Assembly: GCA_965237485.1 (NCBI GenBank)
Contig: CBDEFQ010000005.1
Location: forward strand, 430 to 64,429
Source: Candidatus Poriferihabitaceae bacterium
GTDB taxonomy: Bacteria > Pseudomonadota > Gammaproteobacteria > Arenicellales > Poriferihabitantaceae
Reading direction: 5' to 3'
DNA: 64,000 nt
This document shows positions 13,055 to 31,349 of this stretch, in pieces. Positions within the stretch are counted from its first letter, which is position 1. Each line of letters opens with the position of its first letter. The notes beneath the pieces were generated by a model. That model searched no databases, was not told the DNA's origin, and was given only the letters and a program-made list of their open reading frames with translations. Both the position numbers and the translations under genes were made by a program.

Positions 13055-13529
13055 TTTACGAGACAGTTCAACTGATATTTGTGCAAAGTCTGGCTCACAC
13101 AATAAAGCAGTGGCAGGGCCTCTGCATTTGGGCGGCTTTAATATCGCCTGCAGCTGTTGTTCATCCATGCCTGCTGGCAGGGGCCAGCTTAATTGGGCAT
13201 TTGTTGCTCTGACGAGATATTTGGATACGGCACTGCGTGACAGGTTTAAGCTGAGCGCGATTTTACGGGAGGATAGTTGCGCCTCATAGTGCAAGCGCAG
13301 AATGTCTTTGAGTTTTAACATAGTGACCTTCTTGGGTTTCATAGCTGTTCCAATACAAATAAAAGAACGGCAGGTTAACGGTTATAGTGTTAACCGCAAG
13401 AAGGCTGTGGAGGAATTTTACGGAAGCGAAAAAGTGTCCGCGCTTCGATAAAAATCAGTGGCCACGGTTGGTAAAATTAGGTGGCCTCGCTACGTAAAAT
13501 TAACTGGCCACGGTTGGTAAAAATATGCA

Positions 13530-14102
13530 GCCAGGTTGACCTTCTGGCTGTGGCTTACGTCTTTGGCCGATAGAAGAAGGCTTAGAATGTGTCTTTTCAA
13601 AGTGACGGAGATTGTTCTGGTAGGGTTTAGATCGGCGTAGATTGTATAGATGAGAAACCGAGATAGGTGCCAGGTTGGCATACTCAGTTTGCTCATAGAC
13701 AACTAAGGCGCGCTCACAGAGTTTCTTAGTGGCATGGCCTGATAACGTACCGTGGAGTTCATCCATATCTGCTAGAAGCTTAATGTCTTGATTGCTATAG
13801 CGTCTAGCAAAGCCCCTTGTGGCACGATGTCGCCACTGGATTCTACCGTGCTTGAGATAGCTGGCAGCCAGGCGTTTCACTTGCACATAAGAGTAACCGC
13901 TGATGCGTGTGATATAACGCAGCACAAGACCCTTATCGGCTCGACCCAGTTTGCTGTATTTGAAACGCATTAAGGTGCGTTTGATGAAATCATAGCGATT
14001 GCGTTTACCGTCGATTGCCAGATCGATTTCATCAGTGCCTTGTAGCAACAAGCGTGCCTTATCAAGGGTATCTATATGGTGGTCATTCATAATGGTATTC
14101 AT
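13530..14102 (-). pseudogene. N-terminal fragment of ISNCY-like transposase
   Basis: Near-identical to the start of 6963-7547; cut by the IS21 end. Confidence 0.85.
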
Positions 14103-14214
14103 TCACCATCATGAACAGAAATTAGATTAGTTCGGTATCATTTCCGATTAGAATCAGTCCCTTCGCTCAGTATCATTTCATGTTGGACAAGACTGGTACT
14201 AGGCAATATTCTTT

Positions 14215-14242
14215 ACTTTACATAATATACATTATGCGCAGT
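14215..14242 (-). other. dif: dif-like XerCD recombination site
   Basis: Minus strand ACTGCGCATAA-TGTATA-TTATGTAAAGT versus E. coli dif GGTGCGCATAA-TGTATA-TTATGTTAAAT. Confidence 0.88.
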
Positions 14243-14559
14243 TACCAAAATAGCTCAATGTCGGCATTTCCAGCAGACCGCCAGAAAATAAACGATAAAT
14301 CGATCTAGATAAATGGTATTACTGAGATTAGCAAGCCGTAAATCCGCGCCTCGATGCTAGAAATACCTGTTTAAGTTCATTCAAAAAGGAATAGCCGAGT
14401 TTCTGCGGATAACAAAAAATAGCCAGCAAAAAAGGATATAAGAGGGCCCTTTAACGACAAGACAAATTTAGGCTTGTCAAGATCACAACAAGCAACTAAC
14501 AGAAACTAACTTTATTTATTTAAAAGTTACAATTAGTAAGCGTAGATCCCCCACGACCG

Positions 14560-15953
14560 GAGTTATGCCTGAAAGTGGTGTATGGAGTAGTTGACTAAAA
14601 GCGGCGTATCGGGATGAGTTGAGTTTACAACAACTTAAACTTCCACAGACATACGCCACTATGAAACAGAATAAAATTATTTCCTTTGAAAAGCCAGAGC
14701 AAAGCATCGATCCGCTGCAAGAATTGATTCGCAATGGCGCCAGGCAACTCATTCAAACCGCGGTCGAGAGTGAGTTATCTGAACTGCTGTATCGCAATTG
14801 TGACAAAGTCTCAGATTCAGGACACGCTGGTGTCGTTCGTAACGGCTATTTGCCAGAACGTGAACTGCAAACCGGGATCGGCCCAGTCAAAGTACGTATC
14901 CCCAAGGTGCGCTCCCGCACTGGAGTACCGATCACCTTTCGGTCTGCTTTAGTGCCGCCGTATGTGCGTAAAACGAGAACACTGGAAGCGGCCTTGCCTT
15001 GGCTGTATCTCAAGGGTGTCAGCACTGGAGAAATGGGGGATGCACTGAGCGTGCTAGTGGGTCAATCAGCGACTGGGTTATCATCAAGCACAGTGAGTAA
15101 GCTCAAAGCAACGTGGTCTCAGGAGTACAAGGATTGGAATAGAGAAGGTTTAGATCGAGATCGATGGGTTTATCTATGGGCGGACGGGATACACAGCGGC
15201 CTGCGCGGCGATGAGGGCCGGCTCTGTGCCTTAGTTGTCATCGGAGTGAATGAGCGCGGTCACAAGAAATTACTGGCGATTGAAGACGGTGAGCGAGAGT
15301 CTACGCAGAGTTGGCGAGAGGTGTTGTTGGCACTCAAGGAGCGAGGCCTGAATCAACCAGAGCTGGGCATCGGTGATGGTGCTTTAGGCTTTTGGAATGC
15401 CCTGGAAGAAGTCTATCCTGGCACTAAACATCAACGGTGCCGGGTGCATAAAACGGCCAACGTGCTGAACAAGCTGCCTAAATCGGTGCAGCCCAAAGCA
15501 AAAGCAGCTCTGCATAACATTTGGCAGGAAGAAACCAAAGAAGCGGCGCAAAGCACCTATCAATTATTCATTAAAACCTGTCAAGACAAGTATCCAAAAG
15601 CCACGCAGTGCTTGGAAAAAGATCGCGAAGAGTTAATGACGTTCTACTCGTTCCCTGCCAAGCACTGGATGAGCATACGTACTACGAATCCAATTGAATC
15701 AACATTCGCGACTATCCGACACCGTACCAAACGATGCAAGGGATGTCTTAGCCGTGATGGCATGTTAAGTATGATGTTCAAGCTGGGTCAGTGCGCAGAG
15801 AAAAAGTGGAACCGAATACGCGGGTTCGCCTATCTAGCAAAAGTGATTCAAGGGGTTCCATTTAAAGATGGAATAGAGCAAACTAATGACTACTCAGATC
15901 AAACCGAGGCCGCTTGAAGAAAATGCCTCATACACCAGATTCGGGCATAACTC
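14560..15953 (+). mobile_element. IS256-family element, copy 1 (1394 bp)
   Basis: IRs GAGTTATGCCTGAAAGTGGTGTATG / CATACACCAGATTCGGGCATAACTC; 9-bp DR CCACGACCG. Confidence 0.92.
14661..15917 (+). CDS. IS256-family transposase
   Basis: RNGYLPER, YLWADG, IGDGALGFW and IRTTNPIES motifs; QRCWVH changed to QRCRVH in this copy. Confidence 0.92.
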   Translation: MKQNKIISFEKPEQSIDPLQELIRNGARQLIQTAVESELSELLYRNCDKVSDSGHAGVVRNGYLPERELQTGIGPVKVRIPKVRSRTGVPITFRSALVPPYVRKTRTLEAALPWLYLKGVSTGEMGDALSVLVGQSATGLSSSTVSKLKATWSQEYKDWNREGLDRDRWVYLWADGIHSGLRGDEGRLCALVVIGVNERGHKKLLAIEDGERESTQSWREVLLALKERGLNQPELGIGDGALGFWNALEEVYPGTKHQRCRVHKTANVLNKLPKSVQPKAKAALHNIWQEETKEAAQSTYQLFIKTCQDKYPKATQCLEKDREELMTFYSFPAKHWMSIRTTNPIESTFATIRHRTKRCKGCLSRDGMLSMMFKLGQCAEKKWNRIRGFAYLAKVIQGVPFKDGIEQTNDYSDQTEAA

Positions 15954-15983
15954 CCACGACCGCGAATGAGCGACTTATTCAAA

Positions 15984-16220
15984 TTACCCTATATTCGATT
16001 TAGTTAATAATTCGACATGATTATCCATATCTGCCCTGGTTAATTTTCCCTTCGTTAACAAATGTTGATAAGTTTCCATATCTTCATCAATGATCTCAGT
16101 ACCCAAAGATGCAATATTAAATATCAAGTCTGATCTGCTCCAATTGCAAGCCCTTCTAAACCGTTCTACAGCCTGATAGTAAATTCGATCTGGTTCTGTG
16201 ATATAAACTTTCTTAACCAT
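15984..16220 (-). CDS. Putative ribbon-helix-helix DNA-binding protein (satellite copy 1)
   Basis: MVKKVYI beta strand followed by helix and SRSDLI, a CopG-like pattern; GAGG RBS upstream; identical to 25407-25643. Confidence 0.5.
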   Translation of the reverse strand: MVKKVYITEPDRIYYQAVERFRRACNWSRSDLIFNIASLGTEIIDEDMETYQHLLTKGKLTRADMDNHVELLTKSNIG

Positions 16221-16251
16221 GATTTAACCCTCATATGGTTGGTTGTGGTTA

Positions 16252-16285
16252 GCACTTGAAGGTAATGTCAATTACCGACAAGTGC
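16252..16285. other. Intergenic stem-loop in satellite (also at 25675-25708)
   Basis: GCACTTG..GGTAAT-gtca-ATTACC..CAAGTGC. Confidence 0.5.
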
Positions 16286-16291
16286 GATTAA

Positions 16292-16618
16292 TTAAAACTT
16301 ATAGTCGCGCCAAAATGGATAGATTTTATGACCTTCATAGAATAATGGATTTTGGTCATGCTCGAAGATCATGTAATACATATCAAAACGAACTTCAGCT
16401 GCTTGGTTCAGCTGTTGATTGAAGATAAAGTACATCTCATTCCACATATTTAAGCGTATATCATCGCTATGATTAAGCTGTAATTCACGCCAATAAGACA
16501 TGAAATGTTCCGTTATATATTGCATATAAAGAATGGCACAGCGGCCATGTTTACAGCGCGCGTTTTGCTCAATCTTTTCAAGCGGAAGAATATATTTAAC
16601 AAGCCTAGGATGAGCCAT
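16292..16618 (-). CDS. Hypothetical protein (108 aa, satellite copy 1)
   Basis: ATG MAHPRL preceded by AAGGA; identical to 25715-26041. Confidence 0.6.
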   Translation of the reverse strand: MAHPRLVKYILPLEKIEQNARCKHGRCAILYMQYITEHFMSYWRELQLNHSDDIRLNMWNEMYFIFNQQLNQAAEVRFDMYYMIFEHDQNPLFYEGHKIYPFWRDYKF

Positions 16619-16623
16619 ATTCC

Positions 16624-18594
16624 TTAATCTATAGGCGATATTCTTGCATCTTTTGGCATAAAGCAACTTAAAAAAGCACCATTACGGCCACCTGCCCTAG
16701 CCCTAAATACGACAGGAACTTTAACTAATTTTCCGTCTAAGTCATTGATGCTATTTTTAATGTAATCGACATCTTGTGATTCCCCAGACGTCAGGGTAGT
16801 TGCACACATTTTAATTCACAAGGGGCGGCGGAGAAATACTCATGCCGAAATATAGCGTAGAACGAAGAGAAGCTGTTTTATCTAAATTATTATCATCAAA
16901 TAGTCAGTCCTTCGCAGAAATATCTAGAGAAGAAGGAATCAGTGTTCAAACCTTGTATGATTGGCGAAATAAAGCCAGACGATCAGGAGTTTTAATGCCT
17001 AATAGTGATTCATCTAATCAGTGGGATTGCCAAACTAAGTTCACCGTAGTTCTTGAAACTGCTGCGATGAATGAACAAGAATTATCTGCGTATTGCCGAG
17101 AGAAAGGCCTATACCCTACTCAAATAACGCAATGGCGAGAAGCTTGTATTAATGGTGTTGATGAGGCTCTCATTAGCCCTAAAGTTGCGCGCGATGAAAT
17201 ACGTGCGTTAAAAAAAGACAAGAAGAAGCTAGAAACCCAGCTGCGCCGCAAAGATAAAGCCTTGGCTGAAACGGCCGCATTATTAGTATTACAAAAAAAG
17301 TTTCAGGCGCTTTGGGAGGACGAGGAAGTATGATTACGACTCAGACGCGCATTAAAGTAATCAATGATGTTAATGAAGCAGTAGACGCAGGTTCAAAGCG
17401 TTCAAGTGCTTGTGAGTTGGTTGGCCTTGCCGAGTCTACGCTTAGACGTTGGAAGCCAAAAGGAGAAGATAGTATCCGCAGTGATCAACGTCCTTTGGTA
17501 GAAAAGCCAGTCCCTGGCAATAAACTAAGCGAGCAAGAGCAGCAACACATTTTATCGATATGTAATGAATCGGCATACAATCATTTGCCGCCGTCGCAAA
17601 TAGTACCGCAGTTGGCTGACAAAGGTATTTATGTGGCCAGCGAGTCTAGCTTTTATCGAGTTCTCAAGGCGCATGGGCAATTGAAGCACCGCGGCCGCGC
17701 CAAACAAAAGCAGTCCCGAACACCCGATACTCATATAGCACTAAAACCTAATGCTGTGTGGATGTGGGATATCACCTATTTGGCGACGCGTACTATTGGC
17801 AAGCATTATTACCTGTACATGGTAGAAGACCTTTACAGTCGCTATGGCGTTCACTGGGAAGTACATCCTGTTGAAAGCGGTGAATTAGGTGCGCAGTTGA
17901 TGTCTCAGGCGGCTCTAAAAGTGGCCAGCTGCGATGGCATGCCCGTCTTACACAGTGATAATGGCAGCCCAATGAAATCGTTCACAATGAGAGCGAAGTT
18001 AGAAGCATTAGGAATAAAGCCCTCTTACTCAAGGCCAAGAGTAAGCAATGACAACGCTTATATTGAATCCATGTTTAGAACGGTAAAGTATTGCCCTGCG
18101 TGGCCTTCTCAAGGCTTCGATAGCTTAGAGGCCGCCCGCCAATGGGTGGGTAAGTTTATGCAATGGTATAACGAAGAACATCGTCACAGTGCTATACGCT
18201 ACGTTACACCTGGCCAGCGTTATCGCGGTGAAGATAGTGCCCTATTAGCAAAACGAGAAGTTGTTTATCAGGAAGCTAAAGCAGCAAAACCTAATCGGTG
18301 GTCTGGCCAAACCCGAAATTGGCGGCCTTGTGGTGCGGTTGCGCTGAACCCACAAAAAGAAGTATTATTGGCTGCGTAGGAAAATGTGCAACTACCCTGA
18401 AAATTGCCGGATTGAATATCAACCAGCTGTACATTGGACCCAACTTGCCCAAAGCTTGTCTCATATTCACTAGTCTTAATGCCAATTCGGCGGTTATATT
18501 TGGTTGCATCATTTGCCCAGGCCTTTTCCTCGTAGCCAAGAAAGTGGCCAACAACATAAGTACCTGAAAGTAAATTTGTTTGAGGTTTAGTCAT
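16624..18594 (-). pseudogene. ssDNA-binding-like gene interrupted by an IS3-family element
   Basis: Halves match intact 26047-26385; IS at 16782-18409. Confidence 0.85.
16782..18409 (+). mobile_element. IS3-family element type A, copy 1 (1628 bp; orfA 16842-17333, orfB to 18379)
   Basis: Subterminal IR TCAGGGTAGTTGCACA; 4-bp DR GATT; A-AAA-AAG slippery site near 17294; WMWDITY, HSDNGS and DNAYIESMF motifs. Confidence 0.92.
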
Positions 18595-18609
18595 GAGTTA
18601 TTTCCGTTG

Positions 18610-18882
18610 TTAATTTTTTGAGAGCCCGGTCGCATGTTTTGCAGTGAGAGAAGTTATAGATGGTTGAAAGCTGACTTCTTCGGGATCGATTAAATCTTTC
18701 GTAATAAATAAACGATTACATAAGCTAGGAGAGAAGTCGGACTGTTGAATAATGTAATGGAGGGTTTTCGATGAGAAAGAACTAAGCCATGAAGCCTCAT
18801 CTACATGAGACTCAAACATAAGCTTAATGTAATCTTTTTTGGAGATAGACAGTCCATCTGCACTTATTAGAATTTCTGACAT
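18610..18882 (-). CDS. Hypothetical protein (90 aa, satellite copy 1)
   Basis: Immediately after the rep stop; identical to 26401-26673. Confidence 0.55.
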   Translation of the reverse strand: MSEILISADGLSISKKDYIKLMFESHVDEASWLSSFSSKTLHYIIQQSDFSPSLCNRLFITKDLIDPEEVSFQPSITSLTAKHATGLSKN

Positions 18883-19116
18883 ATCAAGCCGCCAATCTAA
18901 GCTTAGTAACTGGCTGCTGATACCAATGAGGAACTGGCAAATCAGATATAGTTATCTTCCTGATTTCTTTAACAGTAACAGGACTAAAGCGAGATATATC
19001 ACATGGTAATCCAATATCAATTCCTATCTTCCTTAATCTGGCTCTGTGTGTTTGCACCTGCTTCTTAGATAAATCCATATTAACCCCATGCATCCACTGA
19101 ATGGCGTACATAGCAG

Positions 19117-20383
19117 TGAAGTGGACCCCATGATTAGGACAGGTTGAAGGCCAAAATAAGGAGTTATTTTCTGTTTTATAATTGTTCAAAACGAGGAACA
19201 GAAAATGAGTAAAAAGCGTAGAAACCATGCCCCACCATTCAAAGCCAAAGTTGCTCTTGCAGCAATCAAAGGTGATGAAACATTAAGCAATCTTGCTAGT
19301 CGTTATGACATCAATGCAAATCTTATCGTCAAGTGGAAGAAACAATTGCTCGATAGCTCAGCTGAAGTCTTTGCATCAGGCACAGGCTTATCTCCAAACC
19401 GAGAATCAGAGATTAAATCATTACAGGCAAAGATCGGTGAAATCACCATGGAAAACGATTTTTTATCAAAAGCGCTCGGTCGTTAAACAGACCTGAGCGC
19501 AAAACTATGATTAATAAAAGCAATAAACTATCGTTAGTTCGTCAGTGTAAATTGTTGAAGATTCATCGTTCCCATGTTTATTACAAAACCTCACCTGCTA
19601 ATGAGGATGACTTGGAACTGATGCATCTGATTGATCGCATTCACCTCAATCGGCCCTTTCTTGGCAGTAGACGCATTCGTGATGTGTTGCAAGATGTAGG
19701 CCACCGAGTTGACCGTAAACATGTGCGACGCTTAATGCGTAAGATGGGCATTAAAGCCATCTATCCTAGGCCTAACACCAGCAAGAAGAAGGCGGGGCAC
19801 AAGATTTATCCTTATCTGCTAGGTGGGTTGGCCATCAATCAACCCAATCAAGCTTGGTGTACCGATATAACTTATATCCCGATGCCTAAGGGCTTTGCTT
19901 ATCTTACCGTTGTGATGGATTGGTATTCTCGTAAAGTGCTGTCATGGCGGCTTAGCAACAGCATGGATAGCGCATTCTGCGTAGATGCTTTGGAAGAGGC
20001 ACTGCATTACTACGGCAAGCCTGATATCTTTAACAGCGATCAAGGTGCGCAATTTACCAGTGAGGCGTTTACCGGTGTACTCAAAGACAATGGTATTCGC
20101 ATCAGCATGGATGGCAAAGGTGCTTGGCGTGACAATGTATTTGTTGAGCGCTTATGGCGCAGCGTGAAATATGAGGAAGTCTATTTGCAAGCCTACCAAT
20201 CGATGAAAGAGGCAAAAGACGGCATTGGCTCCTGGATAAACTATTACAACCAAGAGCGTAAACATCAAACATTGGGCATGGTCCCTGACATGATGTATGA
20301 TCCATGTCGCGGCCTGAAATTGGCTGCTTAATCAGCTGAAAATAACTCCTAAGCCATCTGTCCTAAAAAGCGGGTCCACTTCT
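19117..20383 (+). mobile_element. IS3-family element type B, copy 1 (1267 bp; orfA 19205-19486, orfB to 20331)
   Basis: IRs TGAAGTGGACCC / GGGTCCACTTCT; 3-bp DR CAG; WCTDITY, NSDQGAQF and DNVFVERLW motifs. Confidence 0.92.
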
Positions 20384-20591
20384 CAGTGCAATTGGCGGAT
20401 AGTGTGCTTCTGCAAATGTTGTTATTAATCAATTGCTCAGATATGTTTTCTAGCTTCATAGCGTTCACCTTTAAACGTTGGTCAATGTGTAAAAACTCTT
20501 TATGTAATGTCTCCAATTGAGAGAAATCTATTAATCCGTAAAAGGATAAATTATGGCGCCTCAGATACTCTGATTTAACTTTCTGCTCAAA

Positions 20592-22219
20592 CCCCAGACG
20601 TCAGGGTAGTTGCACACATTTTAATTCACAAGGGGCGGCGGAGAAATACTCATGCCGAAATATAGCGTAGAACGAAGAGAAGCTGTTTTATCTAAATTAT
20701 TATCATCAAATAGTCAGTCCTTCGCAGAAATATCTAGAGAAGAAGGAATCAGTGTTCAAACCTTGTATGATTGGCGAAATAAAGCCAGACGATCAGGAGT
20801 TTTAATGCCTAATAGTGATTCATCTAATCAGTGGGATTGCCAAACTAAGTTCACCGTAGTTCTTGAAATTGCTGCGATGAATGAACAAGAATTATCTGCG
20901 TATTGCCGAGAGAAAGGCCTATACCCTACTCAAATAACGCAATGGCGAGAAGCTTGTATTAATGGTGTTGATGAGGCTCTCATTAGCCCTAAAGTTGCGC
21001 GCGATGAAATACGTGCGTTAAAAAAAGACAAGAAGAAGCTAGAAACCCAGCTGCGCCGCAAAGATAAAGCCTTGGCTGAAACGGCCGCATTATTAGTATT
21101 ACAAAAAAAGTTTCAGGTGCTTTGGGAGGACGAGGAAGTATGATTACGACTCAGACGCGCATTAAAGTAATCAATGATGTTAATGAAGCAGTAGACGCAG
21201 GTTCAAAGCGTTCAAGTGCTTGTGAGTTGGTTGGCCTTGCCGAGTCTACGCTTAGACGTTGGAAGCCAAAAGGAGAAGATAGTATCCGCAGTGATCAACG
21301 TCCTTTGGTAGAAAAGCCAGTCCCTGGCAATAAACTAAGCGAGCAAGAGCAGCAACACATTTTATCGATATGTAATGAATCGGCATACAATCATTTGCCG
21401 CCGTCGCAAATAGTACCGCAGTTGGCTGACAAAGGTATTTATGTGGCCAGCGAGTCTAGCTTTTATCGAGTTCTCAAGGCGCATGGGCAATTGAAGCACC
21501 GCGGCCGCGCCAAACAAAAGCAGTCCCGAACACCCGATACTCATATAGCGCTAAAACCTAATGCTGTGTGGATGTGGGATATCACCTATTTGGCGACGCG
21601 TACTATTGGCAAGCATTATTACCTGTACATGGTAGAAGACCTTTACAGTCGCTATGGCGTTCACTGGGAAGTACATCCTGTTGAAAGCGGTGAATTAGGT
21701 GCGCAGTTGATGTCTCAGGCGGCTCTAAAAGTGGCCAGCTGCGATGGCATGCCCGTCTTACACAGTGATAATGGCAGCCCAATGAAATCGTTCACAATGA
21801 GAGCGAAGTTAGAAGCATTAGGAATAAAGCCCTCTTACTCAAGGCCAAGAGTAAGCAATGACAACGCTTATATTGAATCCATGTTTAGAACGGTAAAGTA
21901 TTGCCCTGCGTGGCCTTCTCAAGGCTTCGATAGCTTAGAGGCCGCCCGCCAATGGGTGGGTAAGTTTATGCAATGGTATAACGAAGAACATCGTCACAGT
22001 GCTATACGCTACGTTACACCTGGCCAGCGTTATCGCGGTGAAGATAGTGCCCTATTAGCAAAACGAGAAGTTGTTTATCAGGAAGCTAAAGCAGCAAAAC
22101 CTAATCGGTGGTCTGGCCAAACCCGAAATTGGCGGCCTTGTGGTGCGGTTGCGCTGAACCCACAAAAAGAAGTATTATTGGCTGCGTAGGAAAATGTGCA
22201 ACTACCCTGAAAATTGCCG
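20592..22219 (+). mobile_element. IS3-family element type A, copy 2 (orfA 20652-21143, orfB to 22189)
   Basis: Near-identical to 16782-18409; 4-bp DR CAAA. Confidence 0.92.
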
Positions 22220-23021
22220 CAAAGCGCACTACGCCATTAGTAGCGCAATAGTCATGGACTTTCTTGATGTAAATATATTCGCTTGAGTGAGAGCCGTATT
22301 GACGTTTTATCTTTGGAAATCCATGTAACGATATCTCATTCGCTTTATCATAAATGGTTGGATATATAAGCTTGGCTTTATTAAGTTTGCTACGCCAATC
22401 AACGGAACAGCCATTCGAATGCAAATGAGGTATTGAGTTACGATACTTCTGAGTGGATAAACCCTTAATGTAAGCAGATTGATTGCCCTTCCCTGCCATC
22501 CTGTTGGTCGTTAAATGAACCTCTTGAATGATAGCGCCATCTGAAACTTTATGAGACTTCTTGCCGTCTTTACTTTGGCGATACCAAACCTTAGTGGCCT
22601 TAGTGAAAACTGGCAATCCTTTCTCAGAAAGTATGGAATTAAAAACGGATACACACTGATCTAAATTAGTATATCCAAATAGATTATCGAGTCGATTAAT
22701 TCTAGATGGATTGCCATCAACTTCAATCCTTCCTGACCTGACTCGTATTCCTAATGAGGTGCTATGAGAGCCTTCATATCTAAGATAATGACTGCGCTCT
22801 TGCGTTTCATCAGTGATTCTTCCTGTTTCCATATCAACTTTGACATAACACTCACGATACTCATTAGGTATCTGATCAAAATCAAAGTCCTGAGAAACCT
22901 TTAGCCCATCGATAAACATATCAAAAGCTATCGATAAACAAAGTGACCGTATCGAGAGAAATCACTCTCGAATAGATATATGCATTGATTGCTGTCAAGA
23001 CCACCATATGCTGAATTTAAC

Positions 23022-23035
23022 ACCCTTATAAGGGT
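23022..23035. promoter_or_regulatory. Putative repressor operator (perfect palindrome; also at 27911-27924)
   Basis: ACCCTTATAAGGGT between divergent rep and XRE genes; degenerate copies near 23053-23087. Confidence 0.5.
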
Positions 23036-23146
23036 AATTACAACAGAGAGTGGAGTTATAGGGTGTAATATTTGCCCCTATAAGAGTATTAAATTGTGTA
23101 TATTGAGAAAATACACTCCTTGTTAACCACTAATTACCTTCTAATA

Positions 23147-23629
23147 ATGGAAATCGGTCAAAGAATAAAAGCGATTAGAATTAAAAAAAGATTCACAGCA
23201 AAACAATTGTCTGAGCTAAGTAAAATACCTGAAAAGAGTATCTATAAAATTGAAGCAGGAGGAGTTAAAGACCCACGCATATCTAGCGTGGCAGCAATTG
23301 CAAAAGGACTAGATTGCGGGATTGACGAACTACTAAATGACCAAAAAGGAAACGATATATTGCACCAAGCGATCGAGTTCATTCACGAATACGATGCCGA
23401 AAATGAAATAGAAAAAAACTATGCAATTTACCTACTAGAAAAGTATCGAAGCAAAGAAGAATATTACCAATCAATGGCAGATCAAGACTTAGACCCAGAT
23501 GTGGCTGATGACTTAATGTTGCTAAGTAAGCTTGAAGATAAGCCACATAAAACATACGACGATTACATGCACATAAAACAAATAAAAAGTACGCTAAATA
23601 TCACGGTAGTAAACAAGGAAGAAAGTTAA
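23147..23629 (+). CDS. XRE/Cro-C1 HTH repressor, divergent from rep (RstR-like position)
   Basis: IGQRIKAIRIKKRFTAKQLSELSKIPEKSIYKIEAGGVKDPRISSVAAIAKGL. Confidence 0.85.
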   Translation: MEIGQRIKAIRIKKRFTAKQLSELSKIPEKSIYKIEAGGVKDPRISSVAAIAKGLDCGIDELLNDQKGNDILHQAIEFIHEYDAENEIEKNYAIYLLEKYRSKEEYYQSMADQDLDPDVADDLMLLSKLEDKPHKTYDDYMHIKQIKSTLNITVVNKEES

Positions 23630-23982
23630 TAAAAACCGTTGAGGTCCACGGTAAAGTGGGAGTGTCACCAAAATAGCTCAATGTCGGCATTTCCAGCAGA
23701 CCGCCAGAAAATAAACGATAAATCGATCTAGATAAATGGTATTACTGAGATTAGCAAGCCGTAAATCCGCGCCTCGATGCTAGAAATACCTGTTTAAGTT
23801 CATTCAAAAAGGAATAGCCGAGTTTCTGCGGATAACAAAAAATAGCCAGCAAAAAAGGATATAAGAGGGCCCTTTAACGACAAGACAAATTTAGGCTTGT
23901 CAAGATCACAACAAGCAACTAACAGAAACTAACTTTATTTATTTAAAAGTTACAGTTAGTAAGCGTAGATCCCCCACGACCG

Positions 23983-25376
23983 GAGTTATGCCTGAAAGTG
24001 GTGTATGGAGTAGTTGACTAAAAGCGGCGTATCGGGATGAGTTGAGTTTACAACAACTTAAACTTCCACAGACATACGCCACTATGAAACAGAATAAAAT
24101 TATTTCCTTTGAAAAGCCAGAGCAAAGCATCGATCCGCTGCAAGAATTGATTCGCAATGGCGCCAGGCAACTCATTCAAACCGCGGTCGAGAGTGAGTTA
24201 TCTGAACTGCTGTATCGCAATTGTGACAAAGTCTCAGATTCAGGACACGCTGGTGTCGTTCGTAACGGCTATTTGCCAGAACGTGAACTGCAAACCGGGA
24301 TCGGCCCAGTCAAAGTACGTATCCCCAAGGTGCGCTCCCGCACTGGAGTACCGATCACCTTTCGGTCTGCTTTAGTGCCGCCGTATGTGCGTAAAACGAG
24401 AACACTGGAAGCGGCCTTGCCTTGGCTGTATCTCAAGGGTGTCAGCACTGGAGAAATGGGGGATGCACTGAGCGTGCTAGTGGGTCAATCAGCGACTGGG
24501 TTATCATCAAGCACAGTGAGTAAGCTCAAAGCAACGTGGTCTCAGGAGTACAAGGATTGGAATAGAGAAGGTTTAGATCGAGATCGATGGGTTTATCTAT
24601 GGGCGGACGGGATACACAGCGGCCTGCGCGGCGATGAGGGCCGACTCTGTGCCTTAGTTGTCATCGGAGTGAATGAGCGCGGTCACAAGAAATTACTGGC
24701 GATTGAAGACGGTGAGCGAGAGTCTACGCAGAGTTGGCGAGAGGTGTTGTTGGCACTCAAGGAGCGAGGCCTGAATCAACCAGAGCTGGGCATCGGTGAT
24801 GGTGCTTTAGGCTTTTGGAATGCCCTGGAAGAAGTCTATCCTGGCACTAAACATCAACGGTGTTGGGTGCATAAAACGGCCAACGTGCTGAACAAGCTGC
24901 CTAAATCGGTGCAGCCCAAAGCAAAAGCAGCTCTGCATAACATTTGGCAGGAAGAAACCAAAGAAGCGGCGCAAAGCGCCTATCAATTATTCATTAAAAC
25001 CTGTCAAGACAAGTATCCAAAAGCCACGCAGTGCTTGGAAAAAGATCGCGAAGAGTTAATGACGTTCTACTCGTTCCCTGCCAAGCACTGGATGAGCATA
25101 CGTACTACGAATCCAATTGAATCAACATTCGCGACTATCCGACACCGTACCAAACGATGCAAGGGATGTCTTAGCCGTGATGGCATGTTAAGTATGATGT
25201 TCAAGCTGGGTCAGTGCGCAGAGAAAAAGTGGAACCGAATACGCGGGTTCGCCTATCTAGCAAAAGTGATTCAAGGGGTTCCATTTAAAGATGGAATAGA
25301 GCAAACTAATGACTACTCAGATCAAACCGAGGCCGCTTGAAGAAAATGCCTCATACACCAGATTCGGGCATAACTC
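23983..25376 (+). mobile_element. IS256-family element, copy 2 (transposase 24084-25340)
   Basis: Same IRs and same DR CCACGACCG as copy 1. Confidence 0.92.
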
Positions 25377-25406
25377 CCACGACCGCGAATGAGCGACTTA
25401 TTCAAA

Positions 25407-25643
25407 TTACCCTATATTCGATTTAGTTAATAATTCGACATGATTATCCATATCTGCCCTGGTTAATTTTCCCTTCGTTAACAAATGTTGATAAGTTTCC
25501 ATATCTTCATCAATGATCTCAGTACCCAAAGATGCAATATTAAATATCAAGTCTGATCTGCTCCAATTGCAAGCCCTTCTAAACCGTTCTACAGCCTGAT
25601 AGTAAATTCGATCTGGTTCTGTGATATAAACTTTCTTAACCAT
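25407..25643 (-). CDS. Putative ribbon-helix-helix protein (satellite copy 2)
   Basis: Identical to 15984-16220. Confidence 0.5.
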   Translation of the reverse strand: MVKKVYITEPDRIYYQAVERFRRACNWSRSDLIFNIASLGTEIIDEDMETYQHLLTKGKLTRADMDNHVELLTKSNIG

Positions 25644-25714
25644 GATTTAACCCTCATATGGTTGGTTGTGGTTAGCACTTGAAGGTAATGTCAATTACCG
25701 ACAAGTGCGATTAA

Positions 25715-26041
25715 TTAAAACTTATAGTCGCGCCAAAATGGATAGATTTTATGACCTTCATAGAATAATGGATTTTGGTCATGCTCGAAGATCATGTAAT
25801 ACATATCAAAACGAACTTCAGCTGCTTGGTTCAGCTGTTGATTGAAGATAAAGTACATCTCATTCCACATATTTAAGCGTATATCATCGCTATGATTAAG
25901 CTGTAATTCACGCCAATAAGACATGAAATGTTCCGTTATATATTGCATATAAAGAATGGCACAGCGGCCATGTTTACAGCGCGCGTTTTGCTCAATCTTT
26001 TCAAGCGGAAGAATATATTTAACAAGCCTAGGATGAGCCAT
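25715..26041 (-). CDS. Hypothetical protein (108 aa, satellite copy 2)
   Basis: Identical to 16292-16618. Confidence 0.6.
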   Translation of the reverse strand: MAHPRLVKYILPLEKIEQNARCKHGRCAILYMQYITEHFMSYWRELQLNHSDDIRLNMWNEMYFIFNQQLNQAAEVRFDMYYMIFEHDQNPLFYEGHKIYPFWRDYKF

Positions 26042-26046
26042 ATTCC

Positions 26047-26385
26047 TTAATCTATAGGCGATATTCTTGCATCTTTTGGCATAAAGCAACTTAAAAAAGC
26101 ACCATTACGGCCACCTGCCCTAGCCCTAAATACGACAGGAACTTTAACTAATTTTCCGTCTAAGTCATTGATGCTATTTTTAATGTAATCGACATCTTGT
26201 GATTGAATATCAACCAGCTGTACATTGGACCCAACTTGCCCAAAGCTTGTCTCATATTCACTAGTCTTAATGCCAATTCGGCGGTTATATTTGGTTGCAT
26301 CATTTGCCCAGGCCTTTTCCTCGTAGCCAAGAAAGTGGCCAACAACATAAGTACCTGAAAGTAAATTTGTTTGAGGTTTAGTCAT
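26047..26385 (-). CDS. Putative single-stranded DNA-binding protein (inovirus gpV/RstB-like)
   Basis: 112 aa, beta-rich, ends LDGKLVKVPVVFRA; lies downstream of rep as gpV/RstB does. Confidence 0.6.
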   Translation of the reverse strand: MTKPQTNLLSGTYVVGHFLGYEEKAWANDATKYNRRIGIKTSEYETSFGQVGSNVQLVDIQSQDVDYIKNSINDLDGKLVKVPVVFRARAGGRNGAFLSCFMPKDARISPID

Positions 26386-26400
26386 GAGTTATTTCCGTTG

Positions 26401-26673
26401 TTAATTTTTTGAGAGCCCGGTCGCATGTTTTGCAGTGAGAGAAGTTATAGATGGTTGAAAGCTGACTTCTTCGGGATCGATTAAATCTTTCGTAATAAAT
26501 AAACGATTACATAAGCTAGGAGAGAAGTCGGACTGTTGAATAATGTAATGGAGGGTTTTCGATGAGAAAGAACTAAGCCATGAAGCCTCATCTACATGAG
26601 ACTCAAACATAAGCTTAATGTAATCTTTTTTGGAGATAGACAGTCCATCTGCACTTATTAGAATTTCTGACAT
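26401..26673 (-). CDS. Hypothetical protein (90 aa, satellite copy 2)
   Basis: Operon position between rep and ssb. Confidence 0.55.
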   Translation of the reverse strand: MSEILISADGLSISKKDYIKLMFESHVDEASWLSSFSSKTLHYIIQQSDFSPSLCNRLFITKDLIDPEEVSFQPSITSLTAKHATGLSKN

Positions 26674-26674
26674 A

Positions 26675-27808
26675 TCAAGCCGCCAATCTAAGCTTAGTAA
26701 CTGGCTGCTGATACCAATGAGGAACTGGCAAATCAGATATAGTTATCTTCCTGATTTCTTTAACAGTAACAGGACTAAAGCGAGATATATCACATGGTAA
26801 TCCAATATCAATTCCTATCTTCCTTAATCTGGCTCTGTGTGTTTGCACCTGCTTCTTAGATAAATCCATATTAACCCCATGCATCCACTGAATGGCGTAC
26901 ATAGCAGTGCAATTGGCGGATAGTGTGCTTCTGCAAATGTTGTTATTAATCAATTGCTCAGATATGTTTTCTAGCTTCATAGCGTTCACCTTTAAACGTT
27001 GGTCAATGTGTAAAAACTCTTTATGTAATGTCTCCAATTGAGAGAAATCTATTAATCCGTAAAAGGATAAATTATGGCGCCTCAGATACTCTGATTTAAC
27101 TTTCTGCTCAAAGCGCACTACGCCATTAGTAGCGCAATAGTCATGGACTTTCTTGATGTAAATATATTCGCTTGAGTGAGAGCCGTATTGACGTTTTATC
27201 TTTGGAAATCCATGTAACGATATCTCATTCGCTTTATCATAAATGGTTGGATATATAAGCTTGGCTTTATTAAGTTTGCTACGCCAATCAACGGAACAGC
27301 CATTCGAATGCAAATGAGGTATTGAGTTACGATACTTCTGAGTGGATAAACCCTTAATGTAAGCAGATTGATTGCCCTTCCCTGCCATCCTGTTGGTCGT
27401 TAAATGAACCTCTTGAATGATAGCGCCATCTGAAACTTTATGAGACTTCTTGCCGTCTTTACTTTGGCGATACCAAACCTTAGTGGCCTTAGTGAAAACT
27501 GGCAATCCTTTCTCAGAAAGTATGGAATTAAAAACGGATACACACTGATCTAAATTAGTATATCCAAATAGATTATCGAGTCGATTAATTCTAGATGGAT
27601 TGCCATCAACTTCAATCCTTCCTGACCTGACTCGTATTCCTAATGAGGTGCTATGAGAGCCTTCATATCTAAGATAATGACTGCGCTCTTGCGTTTCATC
27701 AGTGATTCTTCCTGTTTCCATATCAACTTTGACATAACACTCACGATACTCATTAGGTATCTGATCAAAATCAAAGTCCTGAGAAACCTTTAGCCCATCG
27801 ATAAACAT
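26675..27808 (-). CDS. Phage/plasmid rolling-circle replication protein, gene II/X family
   Basis: MFIDGL, EGSHSTS, DGNPSRINRLDNLFG, YDKANE, GVVRFEQK and HRARLRKIGIDI are characteristic of Phage_CRI/Phage_X Reps. Confidence 0.85.
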   Translation of the reverse strand: MFIDGLKVSQDFDFDQIPNEYRECYVKVDMETGRITDETQERSHYLRYEGSHSTSLGIRVRSGRIEVDGNPSRINRLDNLFGYTNLDQCVSVFNSILSEKGLPVFTKATKVWYRQSKDGKKSHKVSDGAIIQEVHLTTNRMAGKGNQSAYIKGLSTQKYRNSIPHLHSNGCSVDWRSKLNKAKLIYPTIYDKANEISLHGFPKIKRQYGSHSSEYIYIKKVHDYCATNGVVRFEQKVKSEYLRRHNLSFYGLIDFSQLETLHKEFLHIDQRLKVNAMKLENISEQLINNNICRSTLSANCTAMYAIQWMHGVNMDLSKKQVQTHRARLRKIGIDIGLPCDISRFSPVTVKEIRKITISDLPVPHWYQQPVTKLRLAA

Positions 27809-28216
27809 ATCAAAAGCTATCGATAAACAAAGTGACCGTATCGAGAGAAATCACTCTCGAATAGATATATGCATTGATTGCTGTCAAGACCACCATATGC
27901 TGAATTTAACACCCTTATAAGGGTAATTACAACAGAGAGTAAGCGTGCGTCTTCCTTCGTCGCCGCCCGCGTCCTCGCCCTGCTTCTCCACAAAAGTTTG
28001 TCTTTTTGGAATCAAAAAGGCAAAGGAAAATGAATATAATGAATTAATCTAAAATTCTCATATTACATATCAAAGTCTCATATATGAGACAAAGGTGCAG
28101 TAATACTTGTACCGCACACTGTACTTTGACTAATTTAGCTTATTGTCAAGAAATGGATGTATACAGCTAATAATCATAAAAATGTAACTGAAGGGCATTG
28201 ACTGCAAAGCCGTCAA

Positions 28217-28326
28217 GCACCGCATAATGTGTCCTATGTGAAGCTAAAGCCACTCCGAGCGGAGCATCGTTTAAATAGCTTAGCACCGCTCTCCGTTCGT
28301 CACATAAGAGCGTCATTATGCGCATA
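28217..28326. other. Inverted pair of dif-like sites (CTX-type attP/attR hairpin)
   Basis: Plus GCACCGCATAA-TGTGTC-CTATGTGAAGC (28217-28244) and minus TATGCGCATAA-TGACGCTC-TTATGTGACGA (28297-28326), with an internal GAGCGG/CCGCTC stem. Confidence 0.75.
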
Positions 28327-28610
28327 TCAATATGTAATTACTCGATCGAGTGGTTTTAGATCTAAATGCTGGCATTTGATAAATGTAAATTCCCCGGGAA
28401 GTTAAACGGTAAATCGATTTAGATAAATGGTCGTCCTGAGATTAGCAAGCCGTGGATCGACGCGTTGATGCTTGGCAATACCTGTTTTAGAATGTTGAAG
28501 ATCTTGAACTACTTTATTTGCGTACGACCCAAAAGATAGTCTGCAAAAGGAAGGTTTTATTGTTGAATAAGTCCGCAACCCTCGCGCATGCGCAAGGAAC
28601 GTGGACTTAT

Positions 28611-28952
28611 TCAACAATAGGCTTGATACAATTCGCCTAAATATTCAAACTTAAGATAACAGCCAGTATTTTCTAATATGATAGCTTCCTGCTTCAACTG
28701 TGAATAAGTCAATGAGCCTAAGCCAGCGCCTTGAATAAAAGCCTCTGTAAGAACATCACCAGAGTAGATCGTGCCAGTAATAGTTAAATCATTACGTATA
28801 TGACGCATACCAATGTAATCAATACCTTCCTCATCATATAAGCCGTAACCAACCTGCTTCATATATGACTTGATGAATTCTCGAACATCCTTGCCCTTAG
28901 TTATATAAAACGTAAACCTCCTTTCATCAGAAATTACATTCGGGTGAAGCAT
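28611..28952 (-). CDS. Hypothetical protein in remnant of a second, diverged dif-associated element
   Basis: 113-aa ATG ORF, AT-rich; adjacent non-coding DNA resembles the satellite left end. Confidence 0.55.
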   Translation of the reverse strand: MLHPNVISDERRFTFYITKGKDVREFIKSYMKQVGYGLYDEEGIDYIGMRHIRNDLTITGTIYSGDVLTEAFIQGAGLGSLTYSQLKQEAIILENTGCYLKFEYLGELYQAYC

Positions 28953-28974
28953 GTACGACTTTTCTAATATTTGC

Positions 28975-30005
28975 GAGTTATGCCTGAAAGTGGTGTATGG
29001 AGTAGTTGACTAAAAGCGGCGTATCGGGATGAGTTGAGTTTACAACAACTTAAACTTCCACAGACATACGCCACTATGAAACAGAATAAAATTATTTCCT
29101 TTGAAAAGCCAGAGCAAAGCATCGATCCGCTGCAAGAATTGATTCGCAATGGCGCCAGGCAACTCATTCAAACCGCGGTCGAGAGTGAGTTATCTGAACG
29201 GCTGTATCGCAATTGTGACAAAGTCTCAGATTCAGGACACGCTGGTGTCGTTCGTAACGGCTATTTGCCAGAACGTGAACTGCAAACCGGGATCGGCCCA
29301 GTCAAAGTACGTATCCCCAAGGTGCGCTCCCGCACTGGAGTACCGATCACCTTTCGGTCTGCTTTAGTGCCGCCGTATGTGCGTAAAACGAGAACACTGG
29401 AAGCGGCCTTGCCTTGGCTGTATCTCAAGGGTGTCAGCACTGGAGAAATGGGGGATGCACTGAGCGTGCTAGTGGGTCAATCAGCGACTGGGTTATCATC
29501 AAGCACAGTGAGTAAGCTCAAAGCAACGTGGTCTCAGGAGTACAAGGATTGGAATAGAGAAGGTTTAGATCGAGATCGATGGGTTTATCTATGGGCGGAC
29601 GGGATACACAGCGGCCTGCGCGGCGATGAGGGCCGGCTCTGTGCCTTAGTTGTCATCGGAGTGAATGAGCGCGGTCACAAGAAATTACTGGCGATTGAAG
29701 ACGGTGAGCGAGAGTCTACGCAGAGTTGGCGAGAGGTGTTGTTGGCACTCAAGGAGCGAGGCCTGAATCAACCAGAGCTGGGCATCGGTGATGGTGCTTT
29801 AGGCTTTTGGAATGCCCTGGAAGAAGTCTATCCTGGCACTAAACATCAACGGTGTTGGGTGCATAAAACGGCCAACGTGCTGAACAAGCTGCCTAAATCG
29901 GTGCAGCCCAAAGCAAAAGCAGCTCTGCATAACATTTGGCAGGAAGAAACCAAAGAAGCGGCGCAAAGCGCCTATCAATTATTCATTAAAACCTATCAAG
30001 ACAAG
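28975..30005 (+). mobile_element. IS256-family element, copy 3, 3'-truncated
   Basis: Left IR present; sequence stops at the IS3 type B end at 30006. Confidence 0.9.
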
Positions 30006-31272
30006 AGAAGTGGACCCGCTTTTTAGGACAGATGGCTTAGGAGTTATTTTCAGCTGATTAAGCAGCCAATTTCAGGTCGCGACATGGATCATACATCATG
30101 TCAGGGACCATGCCCAATGTTTGATGTTTACGCTCTTGGTTGTAATAGTTTATCCAGGAGCCAATGCCGTCTTTTGCCTCTTTCATCGATTGGTAGGCTT
30201 GCAAATAGACTTCCTCATATTTCACGCTGCGCCATAAGCACTCAACAAATACATTGTCACGCCAAGCACCTTTGCCATCCATGCTGATGCGAATACCATT
30301 GTCTTTGAGTACACCGGTAAACGCCTCACTGGTAAATTGCGCACCTTGATCGCTGTTAAAGATATCAGGCTTGCCGTAGTAATGCAGTGCCTCTTCCAAA
30401 GCATCTACGCAGAATGCGCTATCCATGCTGTTGCTAAGCCGCCATGACAGCACTTTACGAGAATACCAATCCATCACAACGGTAAGATAAGCAAAGCCCT
30501 TAGGCATCGGGATATAAGTTATATCGGTACACCAAGCTTGATTGGGTTGATTGATGGCCAACCCACCTAGCAGATAAGGATAAATCTTGTGCCCCGCCTT
30601 CTTCTTGCTGGTGTTAGGCCTAGGATAGATGGCTTTAATGCCCATCTTACGCATTAAGCGTCGCACATGCTTACGGTCAACTCGGTGGCCTACATCTTGC
30701 AACACATCACGAATGCGTCTACTGCCAAGAAAGGGCCGATTGAGGTGAATGCGATCAATCAGATGCATCAGTTCCAAGTCATCCTCATTAGCAGGTGAGG
30801 TTTTGTAATAAACATGGGAACGATGAATCTTCAACAATTTACACTGACGAACTAACGATAGTTTATTGCTTTTATTAATCATAGTTTTGCGCTCAGGTCT
30901 GTTTAACGACCGAGCGCTTTTGATAAAAAATCGTTTTCCATGGTGATTTCACTGATCTTTGCCTGTAATGATTTAATCTCTGATTCTCGGTTTGGAGATA
31001 AGCCTGTGCCTGATGCAAAGACTTCAGCTGAGCTATCGAGCAATTGTTTCTTCCACTTGACGATAAGATTTGCATTGATGTCATAACGACTAGCAAGATT
31101 GCTTAATGTTTCATCACCTTTGATTGCTGCAAGAGCAACTTTGGCTTTGAATTGTGGGGCATGGTTTCTACGCTTTTTACTCATTTTCTGTTCCTCGTTT
31201 TGAACAATTATAAAACAGAAAATAACTCCTTATTTTGGCCTTCAACCTGTCCTAATCATGGGGTCCACTTCA
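30006..31272 (-). mobile_element. IS3-family element type B, copy 2 (orfA 30903-31184, orfB 30058-30882)
   Basis: Near-identical to 19117-20383; flanks AAG/GTG differ (no DR). Confidence 0.92.
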
Positions 31273-31349
31273 GTGGGCACACCGCCTATTAGCTGTCCTC
31301 TCGGCAGCGAACGTGACCCGCTATGACCAGCTGTGCGCGGAGGTGAGCC

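Follow-up and report, generated by a model that had tools for sequence, protein, structure and literature searches.

What is known of filamentous-phage satellites comes almost entirely from Vibrio cholerae, where two of them, RS1 and TLCphi, shape phage entry into the chromosomal dif site and the spread of the toxin phage. Here we describe a locus from Candidatus Poriferihabitaceae bacterium that lies in a stretch of 64,000 nucleotides of assembly GCA_965237485.1 (contig CBDEFQ010000005.1, positions 430 to 64,429; hereafter the window, to which all coordinates refer). The interval 14243-28326 of the window is, taken as a whole, best explained as an array of Xer-exploiting filamentous-phage elements (IMEXs) at dif, an explanation that we regard as probable. 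For the element itself, the most fitting description is that of a coat-less derivative, similar to TLC and RS1, from the CUS-1/If1-type inovirus clade.

TLCphi is described as a dif satellite whose initiator combines pfam05144 and pfam05155 (PMC4439123), and is reported to go without morphogenesis genes and to use a helper (PMC4246890, PMC3545932). CTXphi, in the account of PMC3089051, relies on two inverted sites, which form a forked hairpin, and on an XerC-only exchange. An inverted pair of XerCD sites is also reported for Ypfphi and CUS-1 (PMC3089051, PMC4266046), and Ypfphi is described as forming tandem repeats of 2-4 copies that are rearranged by homologous recombination (PMC4266046). 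In an array of such elements, the new dif is stated always to arise at the XerD-side end (10.64898/2026.06.12.731946).

Limits of the Insertion at dif

The chromosomal dif site occupies positions 14215-14242 and reads XerD arm, TATACA, XerC arm on the + strand (XerC arm, TGTATA, XerD arm on the - strand), with the XerC arm, 14232-14242, adjoining the array. The dif-like 28-mer is unique in the 4.17-Mb, 99.6%-complete genome when 6-7 mismatches are allowed. At the right end of the array stand two more dif-like sites, attP-a (28217-28245, + strand; GCACCGCATAA / TGTGTCC / TATGTGAAGCT) and attP-b (28298-28327, - strand, on which it reads TATGCGCATAA / TGACGCTC / TTATGTGACGA), which form a convergent, inverted pair with central regions of 7 and 8 nt. 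The pattern CGCATAA-N5-9-TATGT has three matches in the 64-kb window, namely dif, attP-a and attP-b; shuffled sequence gave a mean of 0.07 matches, and none of 100 shuffles gave three. The first-pass annotation of this DNA, which had placed dif on the left and an inverted dif-like pair on the right, is confirmed by the unique dif and by these three matches.

The - strand is the sense strand of rep and is therefore presumed to be the (+) phage strand. On this strand, the attP pair folds into a hairpin of -20.3 kcal/mol (z -3.4) that was equalled by none of 200 shuffles, in agreement with the folded, CTX-type attachment site proposed earlier. The arms of the two sites are paired in the fold and the centre is open save for its first TG, the dinucleotide that also begins the central region of dif. 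An inverted dif-like pair that pairs in the (+) strand and leaves its centre unpaired is a trait of CTX-type IMEXs. Two further traits of such elements were found: the functional dif is at the XerD-side end of the array, as a CTX-type IMEX requires, and the open reading frames (ORFs) of the element include no recombinase of its own, while host genes for XerC and XerD are present (XerD, elsewhere in the genome, 370.8 bits, above the cut-off; an XerC-like paralogue, 284.5 bits). Judged by the arrangement of its sites, the array bears the predicted footprint of CTX-type integration, with dif on the XerD side and two apparently dead dif-like sites opposite.

When the CTX model is applied to the XerC arms, that of attP-b (28317-28327) would derive from the previous dif, that is, from an older element to the right, E3 (PMC3089051; 10.64898/2026.06.12.731946). 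The rest of attP-b, attP-a and everything leftwards would belong to the incoming element, whose own XerC arm would now be part of dif (14232-14242). On this model, 14243-28326 would be the true limits of one CTX-type insertion, and position gives the order of arrival because the new dif forms at the XerD-side end (10.64898/2026.06.12.731946).

GC skew along the 106-kb contig was uninformative on the position of the terminus. The 200 bp immediately left of dif (14000-14198), which include the start of a 200-amino-acid ORF (13500-14102; no family match), recur in inverted orientation 7 kb away, at 6866-7065, with 99% identity, and the sequence that flanks dif on its XerD side must therefore be repeat or mobile DNA as well.

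A Coat-Less Unit in Two Copies

A BLAST comparison of the 14-32 kb region with itself revealed two direct copies of one unit, 99.8-100% identical where aligned, both on the - strand and 2874 bp long when an inserted element of the IS256 family is left out. The left copy, E1 (14243-23051), carries the same genes as the right copy, E2 (23664-27940), and is broken by insertion sequences (ISs), which leave its rep in three pieces; E2 is intact save for its IS256 and holds the only intact rep. The two are separated by segment X (23052-23663), 612 bp long and present once. E2 is followed by a 387-bp single-copy segment (27941-28327) that comprises a unique spacer (27941-28216), of which there is no other copy in the genome, and the attP pair. 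A single module of 3-4 kb had been proposed for this interval by the first-pass annotation: its gene types (Rep, single-stranded-DNA-binding protein, XRE repressor) stand, while the interval proved to consist of two unit copies with the XRE gene present once.

The genes of the unit, in order, are those for Rep, ORF90, a G5P-like single-stranded-DNA-binding protein (SSB), ORF124 and ORF78, all on the - strand; coordinates are given for E2. Rep (26675-27808, 377 amino acids) is a gene II/X-type rolling-circle initiator. The profile check suggested by the first-pass annotation placed both of its families above gathering score (PF05155, 5e-21, 75.4 bits, cut-off 25; PF05144, 4e-8, 33.7 bits, cut-off 21.7), and phrog_702 matched residues 1-374 at 2e-92. 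The G5P-like SSB (26047-26385, 112 amino acids) was assigned to PF17426 (8.9e-9, 35.9 bits, cut-off 25) and phrog_1547.

The small ORFs have few or no relatives. Both ORF90 (26401-26673) and ORF124 (25715-26089; ORF108 when read from an inner ATG) matched only themselves among 5.8 billion proteins, and neither had a Pfam, PHROG, NCBIfam or PADLOC match or a usable match in the ESM Atlas. The AF2 model of ORF90 has a pLDDT of 59. No viral contig with a homologue of ORF124 was found, the source annotates this ORF with 69 amino acids, its Atlas recognition score is low, and its status as a gene is doubtful. ORF78 (25407-25643), a small helical protein, also had only a self match in the 5.8-billion-protein search; a full HMMER search gave two remote homologues (64 and 67 amino acids, 53% and 46% identical) together with two doubtful matches in giant proteins, and no genomic context for this family was found in metagenome or viral contigs. 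The AF2 model of ORF78 (pLDDT 80) consists of three helices. Its Foldseek matches were weak (E above 1), with ribbon-helix-helix (RHH) antitoxins and CopG in the top rows and none in the PDB at E 0.001 or better, and ORF78 is possibly a ribbon-helix-helix protein, which we offer as a lead and not as a finding. For ORF90, ORF124 and ORF78, PADLOC, Atlas and family searches gave no defence or antirepressor signal, and the roles in helper hijacking, antirepression or defence suggested earlier for these ORFs (with ORF124 as ORF108) gain no support from homology. An Rfam scan of 13000-33500 (E up to 0.1) gave no match.

Pfam, PHROG and NCBIfam family scans detected no integrase, Zot or coat-like gene in the unit. 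No coding-strand ORF of at least 25 amino acids in the unit has a membrane-like hydrophobic stretch, and the ORFs of at least 60 amino acids of related loci found no match in it besides Rep and, weakly, G5P; the unit therefore lacks coat, pIII, pVI, Zot/pI, pIV and integrase genes. No fragment of a coat or Zot pseudogene was found in it. The earlier statement that integrase, zot and coat genes are missing thus holds in family scans as well as in the comparison with relatives.

The IS256-family element of E2 (23983-25376) is flanked by a 9-bp target duplication, CCACGACCG, and that of E1 (14560-15953) sits at the same site, also with a perfect 9-bp duplication. E1 contains, in addition, two copies of IS3-type a (16782-18409 and 20592-22219; target duplications GATT and CAAA) and one copy of IS3-type b (about 19114-20384; short target duplication CAG(TG)). 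All IS insertions in both units are simple ones with target-site duplications. Since the 9-bp duplication of IS256 is intact, IS256 did not delete the missing morphogenesis genes; the sequence is continuous from the stop codon of ORF78 to the end region and dif. The same IS256 is present in both units, whose duplication is therefore later than the entry of IS256 and occurred in this host lineage.

The genome as a whole is swamped by ISs: one IS256-family element alone accounts for 116 BLAST pieces over the contigs, and transposase genes of IS256, two IS3 types, IS21, IS5/IS1182 and IS66-like elements are present in the 64-kb window. A tyrosine-recombinase gene of 300 amino acids occurs in 11 copies on contigs C4, C6 and C9 (e.g., C9:252103-252879); scored with the XerD model, the copies reach 141-142 bits, nine having identical scores, and are probably another repeated mobile element.

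Related Inoviruses and Their Attachment Sites

Relatives of Rep are 44-57% identical to it (62% over one 134-residue piece). They were found in genomes of Lelliottia, Kluyvera, Pectobacterium, Marinobacterium, Aeromonas and Pseudomonas, in the phages phiAFP1 and If1, and in many viral and metagenome contigs; no relative above about 57% over most of the protein was present in the genome, viral, metagenome and phage collections. Within the host order, 2 of 243 genomes (the present one included) have a Rep match. The other eight genomes of the genus have none, which leaves the element in one genome of nine. The order is a small one, which speaks against a Vibrio host.

A Zot-like gene is present in 92 of 103 related loci. 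The 11 loci without it extend at most 3.3 kb downstream of rep, and the seven of these that were inspected all show coat genes or the start of Zot. The coat-less architecture is shared by none of the 103 loci where the DNA reaches far enough. The first-pass annotation had named, as the outcome that would undo it, closest relatives that are full inoviruses with morphogenesis genes at the position of IS256: the relatives are indeed full inoviruses, all 92 that are long enough carrying Zot, while in the present unit the genes were not lost at IS256. In 102 related loci, nothing matches ORF90, ORF124, ORF78 or the XRE protein, save for a chance-level ORF90 match of 24 residues.

By a relaxed pattern, a convergent dif-like pair was detected in 32 of 103 relatives versus 2 of 515 shuffled loci. 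A strict pattern had given 0/76 and then 0/102 loci, a false negative that arose from allowing too short a central region. The pair is upstream of rep at all 32 places where this was measurable, and it is also seen at every tandem-prophage junction. Among the loci with a pair are Alteromonas phage phiAFP1 (L017) and an E. coli prophage beside hipA (L109), the pair of which folds at -37.5 kcal/mol (z -9). A gene II/X Rep combined with a folded attP, put forward earlier as a new pairing, appears from these loci to be the rule in the CUS-1/If1-type clade. Past the complete prophage of L109, at 15600-16100, another inverted dif-like pair is found together with a 450-bp stretch that is repeated, followed by a dif with the central region GACATA; this looks like the remnant of a further array element.

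Of 102 loci, 56 have a two-hairpin motif on the sense strand at 350-500 nt upstream of rep, and the order in the relatives is dif-like pair, two-hairpin motif, small regulator, rep. The motif resembles the nick-site context of Ff phages; by this likeness, and by its position and form, it is a candidate (+) origin.

Origin and Repressor Segment

Segment X carries an XRE/RstR-like repressor gene (23096-23629, + strand, 177 amino acids) with Pfam HTH_3/HTH_26 matches. The best NCBIfam match of the protein is phage_RstR, at 33.5 bits and under the cut-off of 80, and PADLOC gave generic HTH matches only. Operator-like palindromes are located between the XRE gene and rep at 23022-23035, 23052-23065 and 23074-23087. 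At the outer end of the segment (about 23636-23666, - strand) is a remnant of the putative (+) origin of the clade, whose motif (23644-23659) occurs once in the window. The presence of this motif marks X as the native origin-plus-repressor module.

The origin remnant has lost the left arm of hairpin 1 at the junction of X and E2, and folds at -5.5 kcal/mol (z -0.6), compared with -19.5 kcal/mol (z -4.4) for the origin of a relative. Of the replication module, rep is intact in E2, and the sole origin, without hairpin 1, is upstream of the broken copy E1. The spacer that follows the rep promoter region of E2 sits where relatives have origin and repressor. In E2, the distance between the attP pair and rep is 412 bp; at the 32 places measured in relatives it is 537-1868 bp (median 1162), and E2 is taken to lack origin and repressor because its distance is below all of these. 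The start of the spacer (27941-28000) contains a GC-rich stretch of 50 nt amid AT-rich DNA, single copy in the genome. The module borders were considered as Rep nick sites and rejected, being about 14 nt from the likely nick position.

A Putative Older Inovirus Remnant

To the right of the array is E3 (28328-28974, - strand), which has the appearance of the tail end of an older complete inovirus. It includes ORF113 (28611-28952, - strand), an N-terminal fragment of the pIV secretin: in tblastn searches with the pIV proteins of six relatives, it matches residues about 42-96 of about 400, up to the edge of an IS256, and it matches phrog_1012 at 2.9e-4. A truncated IS256 (28975-30005), itself cut by an inverted IS3-type b (30005-31275), follows, and the two replace the rest of E3. 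On our reading of E3, the body of this older inovirus would have been lost to IS256, IS3 and further IS elements.

One block of E3, 28345-28490, is about 83% identical to blocks 14262-14390 and 23685-23813 of the units; apart from it, E3 and the units do not align. In E3 the block is about 76 nt from the XerC arm, downstream of ORF113, and in the units it is about 46 nt from dif. The shared end block was also considered as a hairpin, which folding did not support (z -0.6 and +0.5).

Comparison with Described Satellites and Inoviruses

The array resembles TLCphi, as the latter is described, in being at dif, in its use of host XerCD, in having its own Rep of the pfam05144 plus pfam05155 type, a repressor and a few small ORFs, and in going without morphogenesis or coat genes (PMC4439123, PMC4246890, PMC3545932, PMC6744903). 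It differs in that TLCphi undergoes double-stranded integration at a single attP, aided by XafT (HTH+DUF3653), whereas the array has an inverted pair of sites; DUF3653 was absent from a Pfam scan of all ORFs (E up to 0.1). The small ORFs of the two are unrelated and their hosts belong to different orders.

Like RS1 and the RS2 region of CTXphi, the element is coat-less and has a repressor gene divergent from rep, a gene of the SSB type and an attP folded as in CTX, and both are seen in arrays with a complete phage; its repressor has phage_RstR as the best NCBIfam match. In contrast, the RstA of RS1 is of the pfam02486 type (PMC4439123), while the Rep of the array is PF05144+PF05155. The match to RstR stays under its cut-off, no homologue of RstC turned up, and the small ORFs have no family match. 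Finally, inoviruses of the CUS-1/Ypfphi and If1 types and phiAFP1 have a Rep of the same clade, with 44-57% identity, the Ypfphi Rep being a presumed member and L109 possibly CUS-1 itself. They also share residence at dif, often in tandem, and the order of features, from the inverted pair and the origin hairpins through the small regulator to rep and SSB. Unlike the unit, which has none of these, they carry coat, pIII-like, pVI and Zot/pI genes, and often pIV.

Having neither XafT/DUF3653 nor a pfam02486 initiator, the array belongs to neither the TLCphi nor the RS1 family; it is a counterpart of both in content, with an attachment site in the style of RS1/CTXphi. The first-pass annotation had presented a satellite with a gene II/X Rep as novel. 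TLCphi is already described as a dif satellite with an initiator of pfam05144 plus pfam05155 (PMC4439123), and a dif satellite of this Rep class is therefore not new.

Helper Search and Public Reads

The Zot family has no match in the genome, and no inovirus genes besides those of the array and E3 were found on any contig; secretin-like matches on contigs C2 and C6 are long and were taken as host secretins. A helper inovirus with pI/zot, for which a search had been suggested, was therefore not found in the genome, and a former complete phage is present only as the pIV fragment of E3 next door.

Public reads were consulted as Logan contigs of four runs from three studies, in which contig depth is a weak measure. 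The joint between unit and X is present in the contigs of all four runs, and that between unit and attP (spacer) in two of the four. Run X2 has depths in keeping with the assembly (X 684, attP/E3 655, unit 1540-1910). Those of run X1 were 10.5 for X, 12.6-13.6 for the unit and 4.6 for attP/E3, X and unit being 2.3-2.9 times as deep as attP/E3. The number of unit+XRE repeats may differ between populations. Runs X4 and X5, in which 28002-28975 is uncovered and depth is just 2-3, were not used as evidence.

Discussion

In the history that we propose, E3 would be the oldest component, the last scrap of a complete inovirus (pIV secretin fragment, end region and XerC arm), and the small coat-less element would then have integrated next to it. 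Read in the sense of rep, the native order of the element would most likely have been folded attP pair, spacer, ori(+), divergent XRE/RstR-like repressor, rep, ORF90, G5P-like SSB, ORF124, ORF78, end region and XerC arm, about 3.9 kb altogether. By analogy with CTXphi, the (+) single strand would fold, its inverted dif-like sites would pair, XerC would swap one strand with dif, and replication would complete the insertion, so that one end would be left with two dead sites and the opposite end with a working dif. IS256 would later have entered the unit, which would then have been duplicated and rearranged into attP - spacer - unit - (ori remnant + XRE) - unit - dif. This may have taken place by recombination between the copies of a tandem dimer, with two deletions, each ending in the ori hairpin; alternatively, a circular unit+X form may have re-inserted, in the Campbell manner, into a resident unit from which X had been lost. 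Last, three more IS copies would have entered the left unit.

The sole origin is without one hairpin arm, and the array is therefore probably inert; with its truncated origin, a broken copy, no helper and IS elements throughout, it is most likely an inert relic. To spread, the element would always have depended on a complete inovirus, such as E3, for coat and assembly proteins. Several observations weigh against this account. To arrive at the observed order from the native one takes two deletions or else a circular intermediate, which is unproven; the rearrangement junctions show weak microhomology, and the native order is modelled on relatives whose Rep is at most 57% identical over most of the protein. 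No sister lineage of the unit is known, and its small ORFs have no homologues in the 102 loci. In the contigs of the four runs there is no circle joint between the unit end and the attP pair, no IS256-free unit, and no read support for integration, excision, replication or packaging. The excess depth in X1 may reflect extra copies of unit and X, in which case the element would not be wholly inert. Circular-junction reads and excess coverage had been suggested as features to look for: no contig showed a circle joint of unit end and attP pair, and excess depth was seen in X1, by a measure that is weak.

The element may have evolved as a satellite or may be a one-off deletion derivative. It is conceivable, if unlikely, that the element is a true evolved satellite of CUS-1/If1-type inoviruses that kept the attP style of its helper and the shared end block. 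The end block would then be a packaging signal or (-) origin, the morphogenesis block would have been replaced by private genes, with ORF124, the RHH-like ORF78 and ORF90 acting on the helper, and some populations would still have amplification of unit+XRE, in tandem or as circles. That the element is at present an active, evolved, helper-dependent satellite, which replicates from its origin, is packaged by an outside helper inovirus and employs ORF90, ORF124 and ORF78 for helper hijacking, antirepression or defence, we consider improbable. The intact rep, the SSB gene, the repressor and the compact gene order are what such a satellite would have, the simple insertion of IS256 makes the lack of coat genes older than IS256, and ORF78 is a member of a small real family. 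The 83% conserved block, common only to the neighbouring remnant of a complete phage, is placed where Ff phages keep their packaging signal and (-) origin, and one run (X1) has an excess of unit and X. Yet the only origin, besides lacking a hairpin arm, is followed by an IS-broken copy, with no second origin to end a round of replication. The genome has no helper, one in nine genomes of the genus has the element and 2 of 243 in the order have any relative of Rep, none of 103 related loci has the architecture, the small ORFs carry no defence or antirepressor signal, and the contigs contain no circle joints.

Two further explanations were considered. Decay of a complete prophage, with IS256 and IS3 stripping it of morphogenesis genes, would be in keeping with relatives that, when sufficiently long, are all complete inoviruses, with the more than 100 IS256 matches in the genome, and with the truncation of the neighbouring E3 by IS256 and IS3. 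We judge it very improbable for the units, in both of which the perfect 9-bp duplications of IS256, and those of IS3 too, exclude an adjacent deletion, the sequence is uninterrupted from the ORF78 stop codon through the end region to dif, and no coat or Zot pseudogene fragment is left; decay is contradicted for both units and holds only for E3. It is also scarcely credible that the tandem unit - X - unit is an artefact of assembly in which a chromosomal copy was mixed with a free circular unit+X replicon. Run X4 does include a contig of 4893 bases that closes on itself over the 4889-bp period of unit and X, and the attP/E3 part is uncovered in X4 and X5. However, this contig ends at the insertion point of an IS3, as a repeat break in the chromosome would give, and depth in both runs is just 2-3. 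Moreover, the left copy differs by three IS insertions whose junctions are seen in reads, and run X2 covers X (684) as deeply as attP/E3 (655), with the unit at about double.

We thus prefer to see the locus as an array of Xer-exploiting elements at dif that includes a coat-less derivative of CUS-1/If1-type inoviruses. As it stands, it is a decaying relic in an IS-swamped genome and raises no new question. Were the element a true satellite, it would extend the TLC/RS1-like filamentous satellites beyond Vibrio for the first time; a non-exhaustive literature search turned up no filamentous satellites outside Vibrio, from which we do not claim their absence. The by-products of the analysis, a widespread CTX-type attP and the origin motif, may be more useful than the element: the folded attP pair and the two-hairpin motif are potential border markers, and could improve the curation of prophage borders in this clade. 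For the filamentous phages, a coat-less element of enterobacterial inovirus type in another gammaproteobacterial order suggests that parasites or deletion derivatives of these phages arise elsewhere too.

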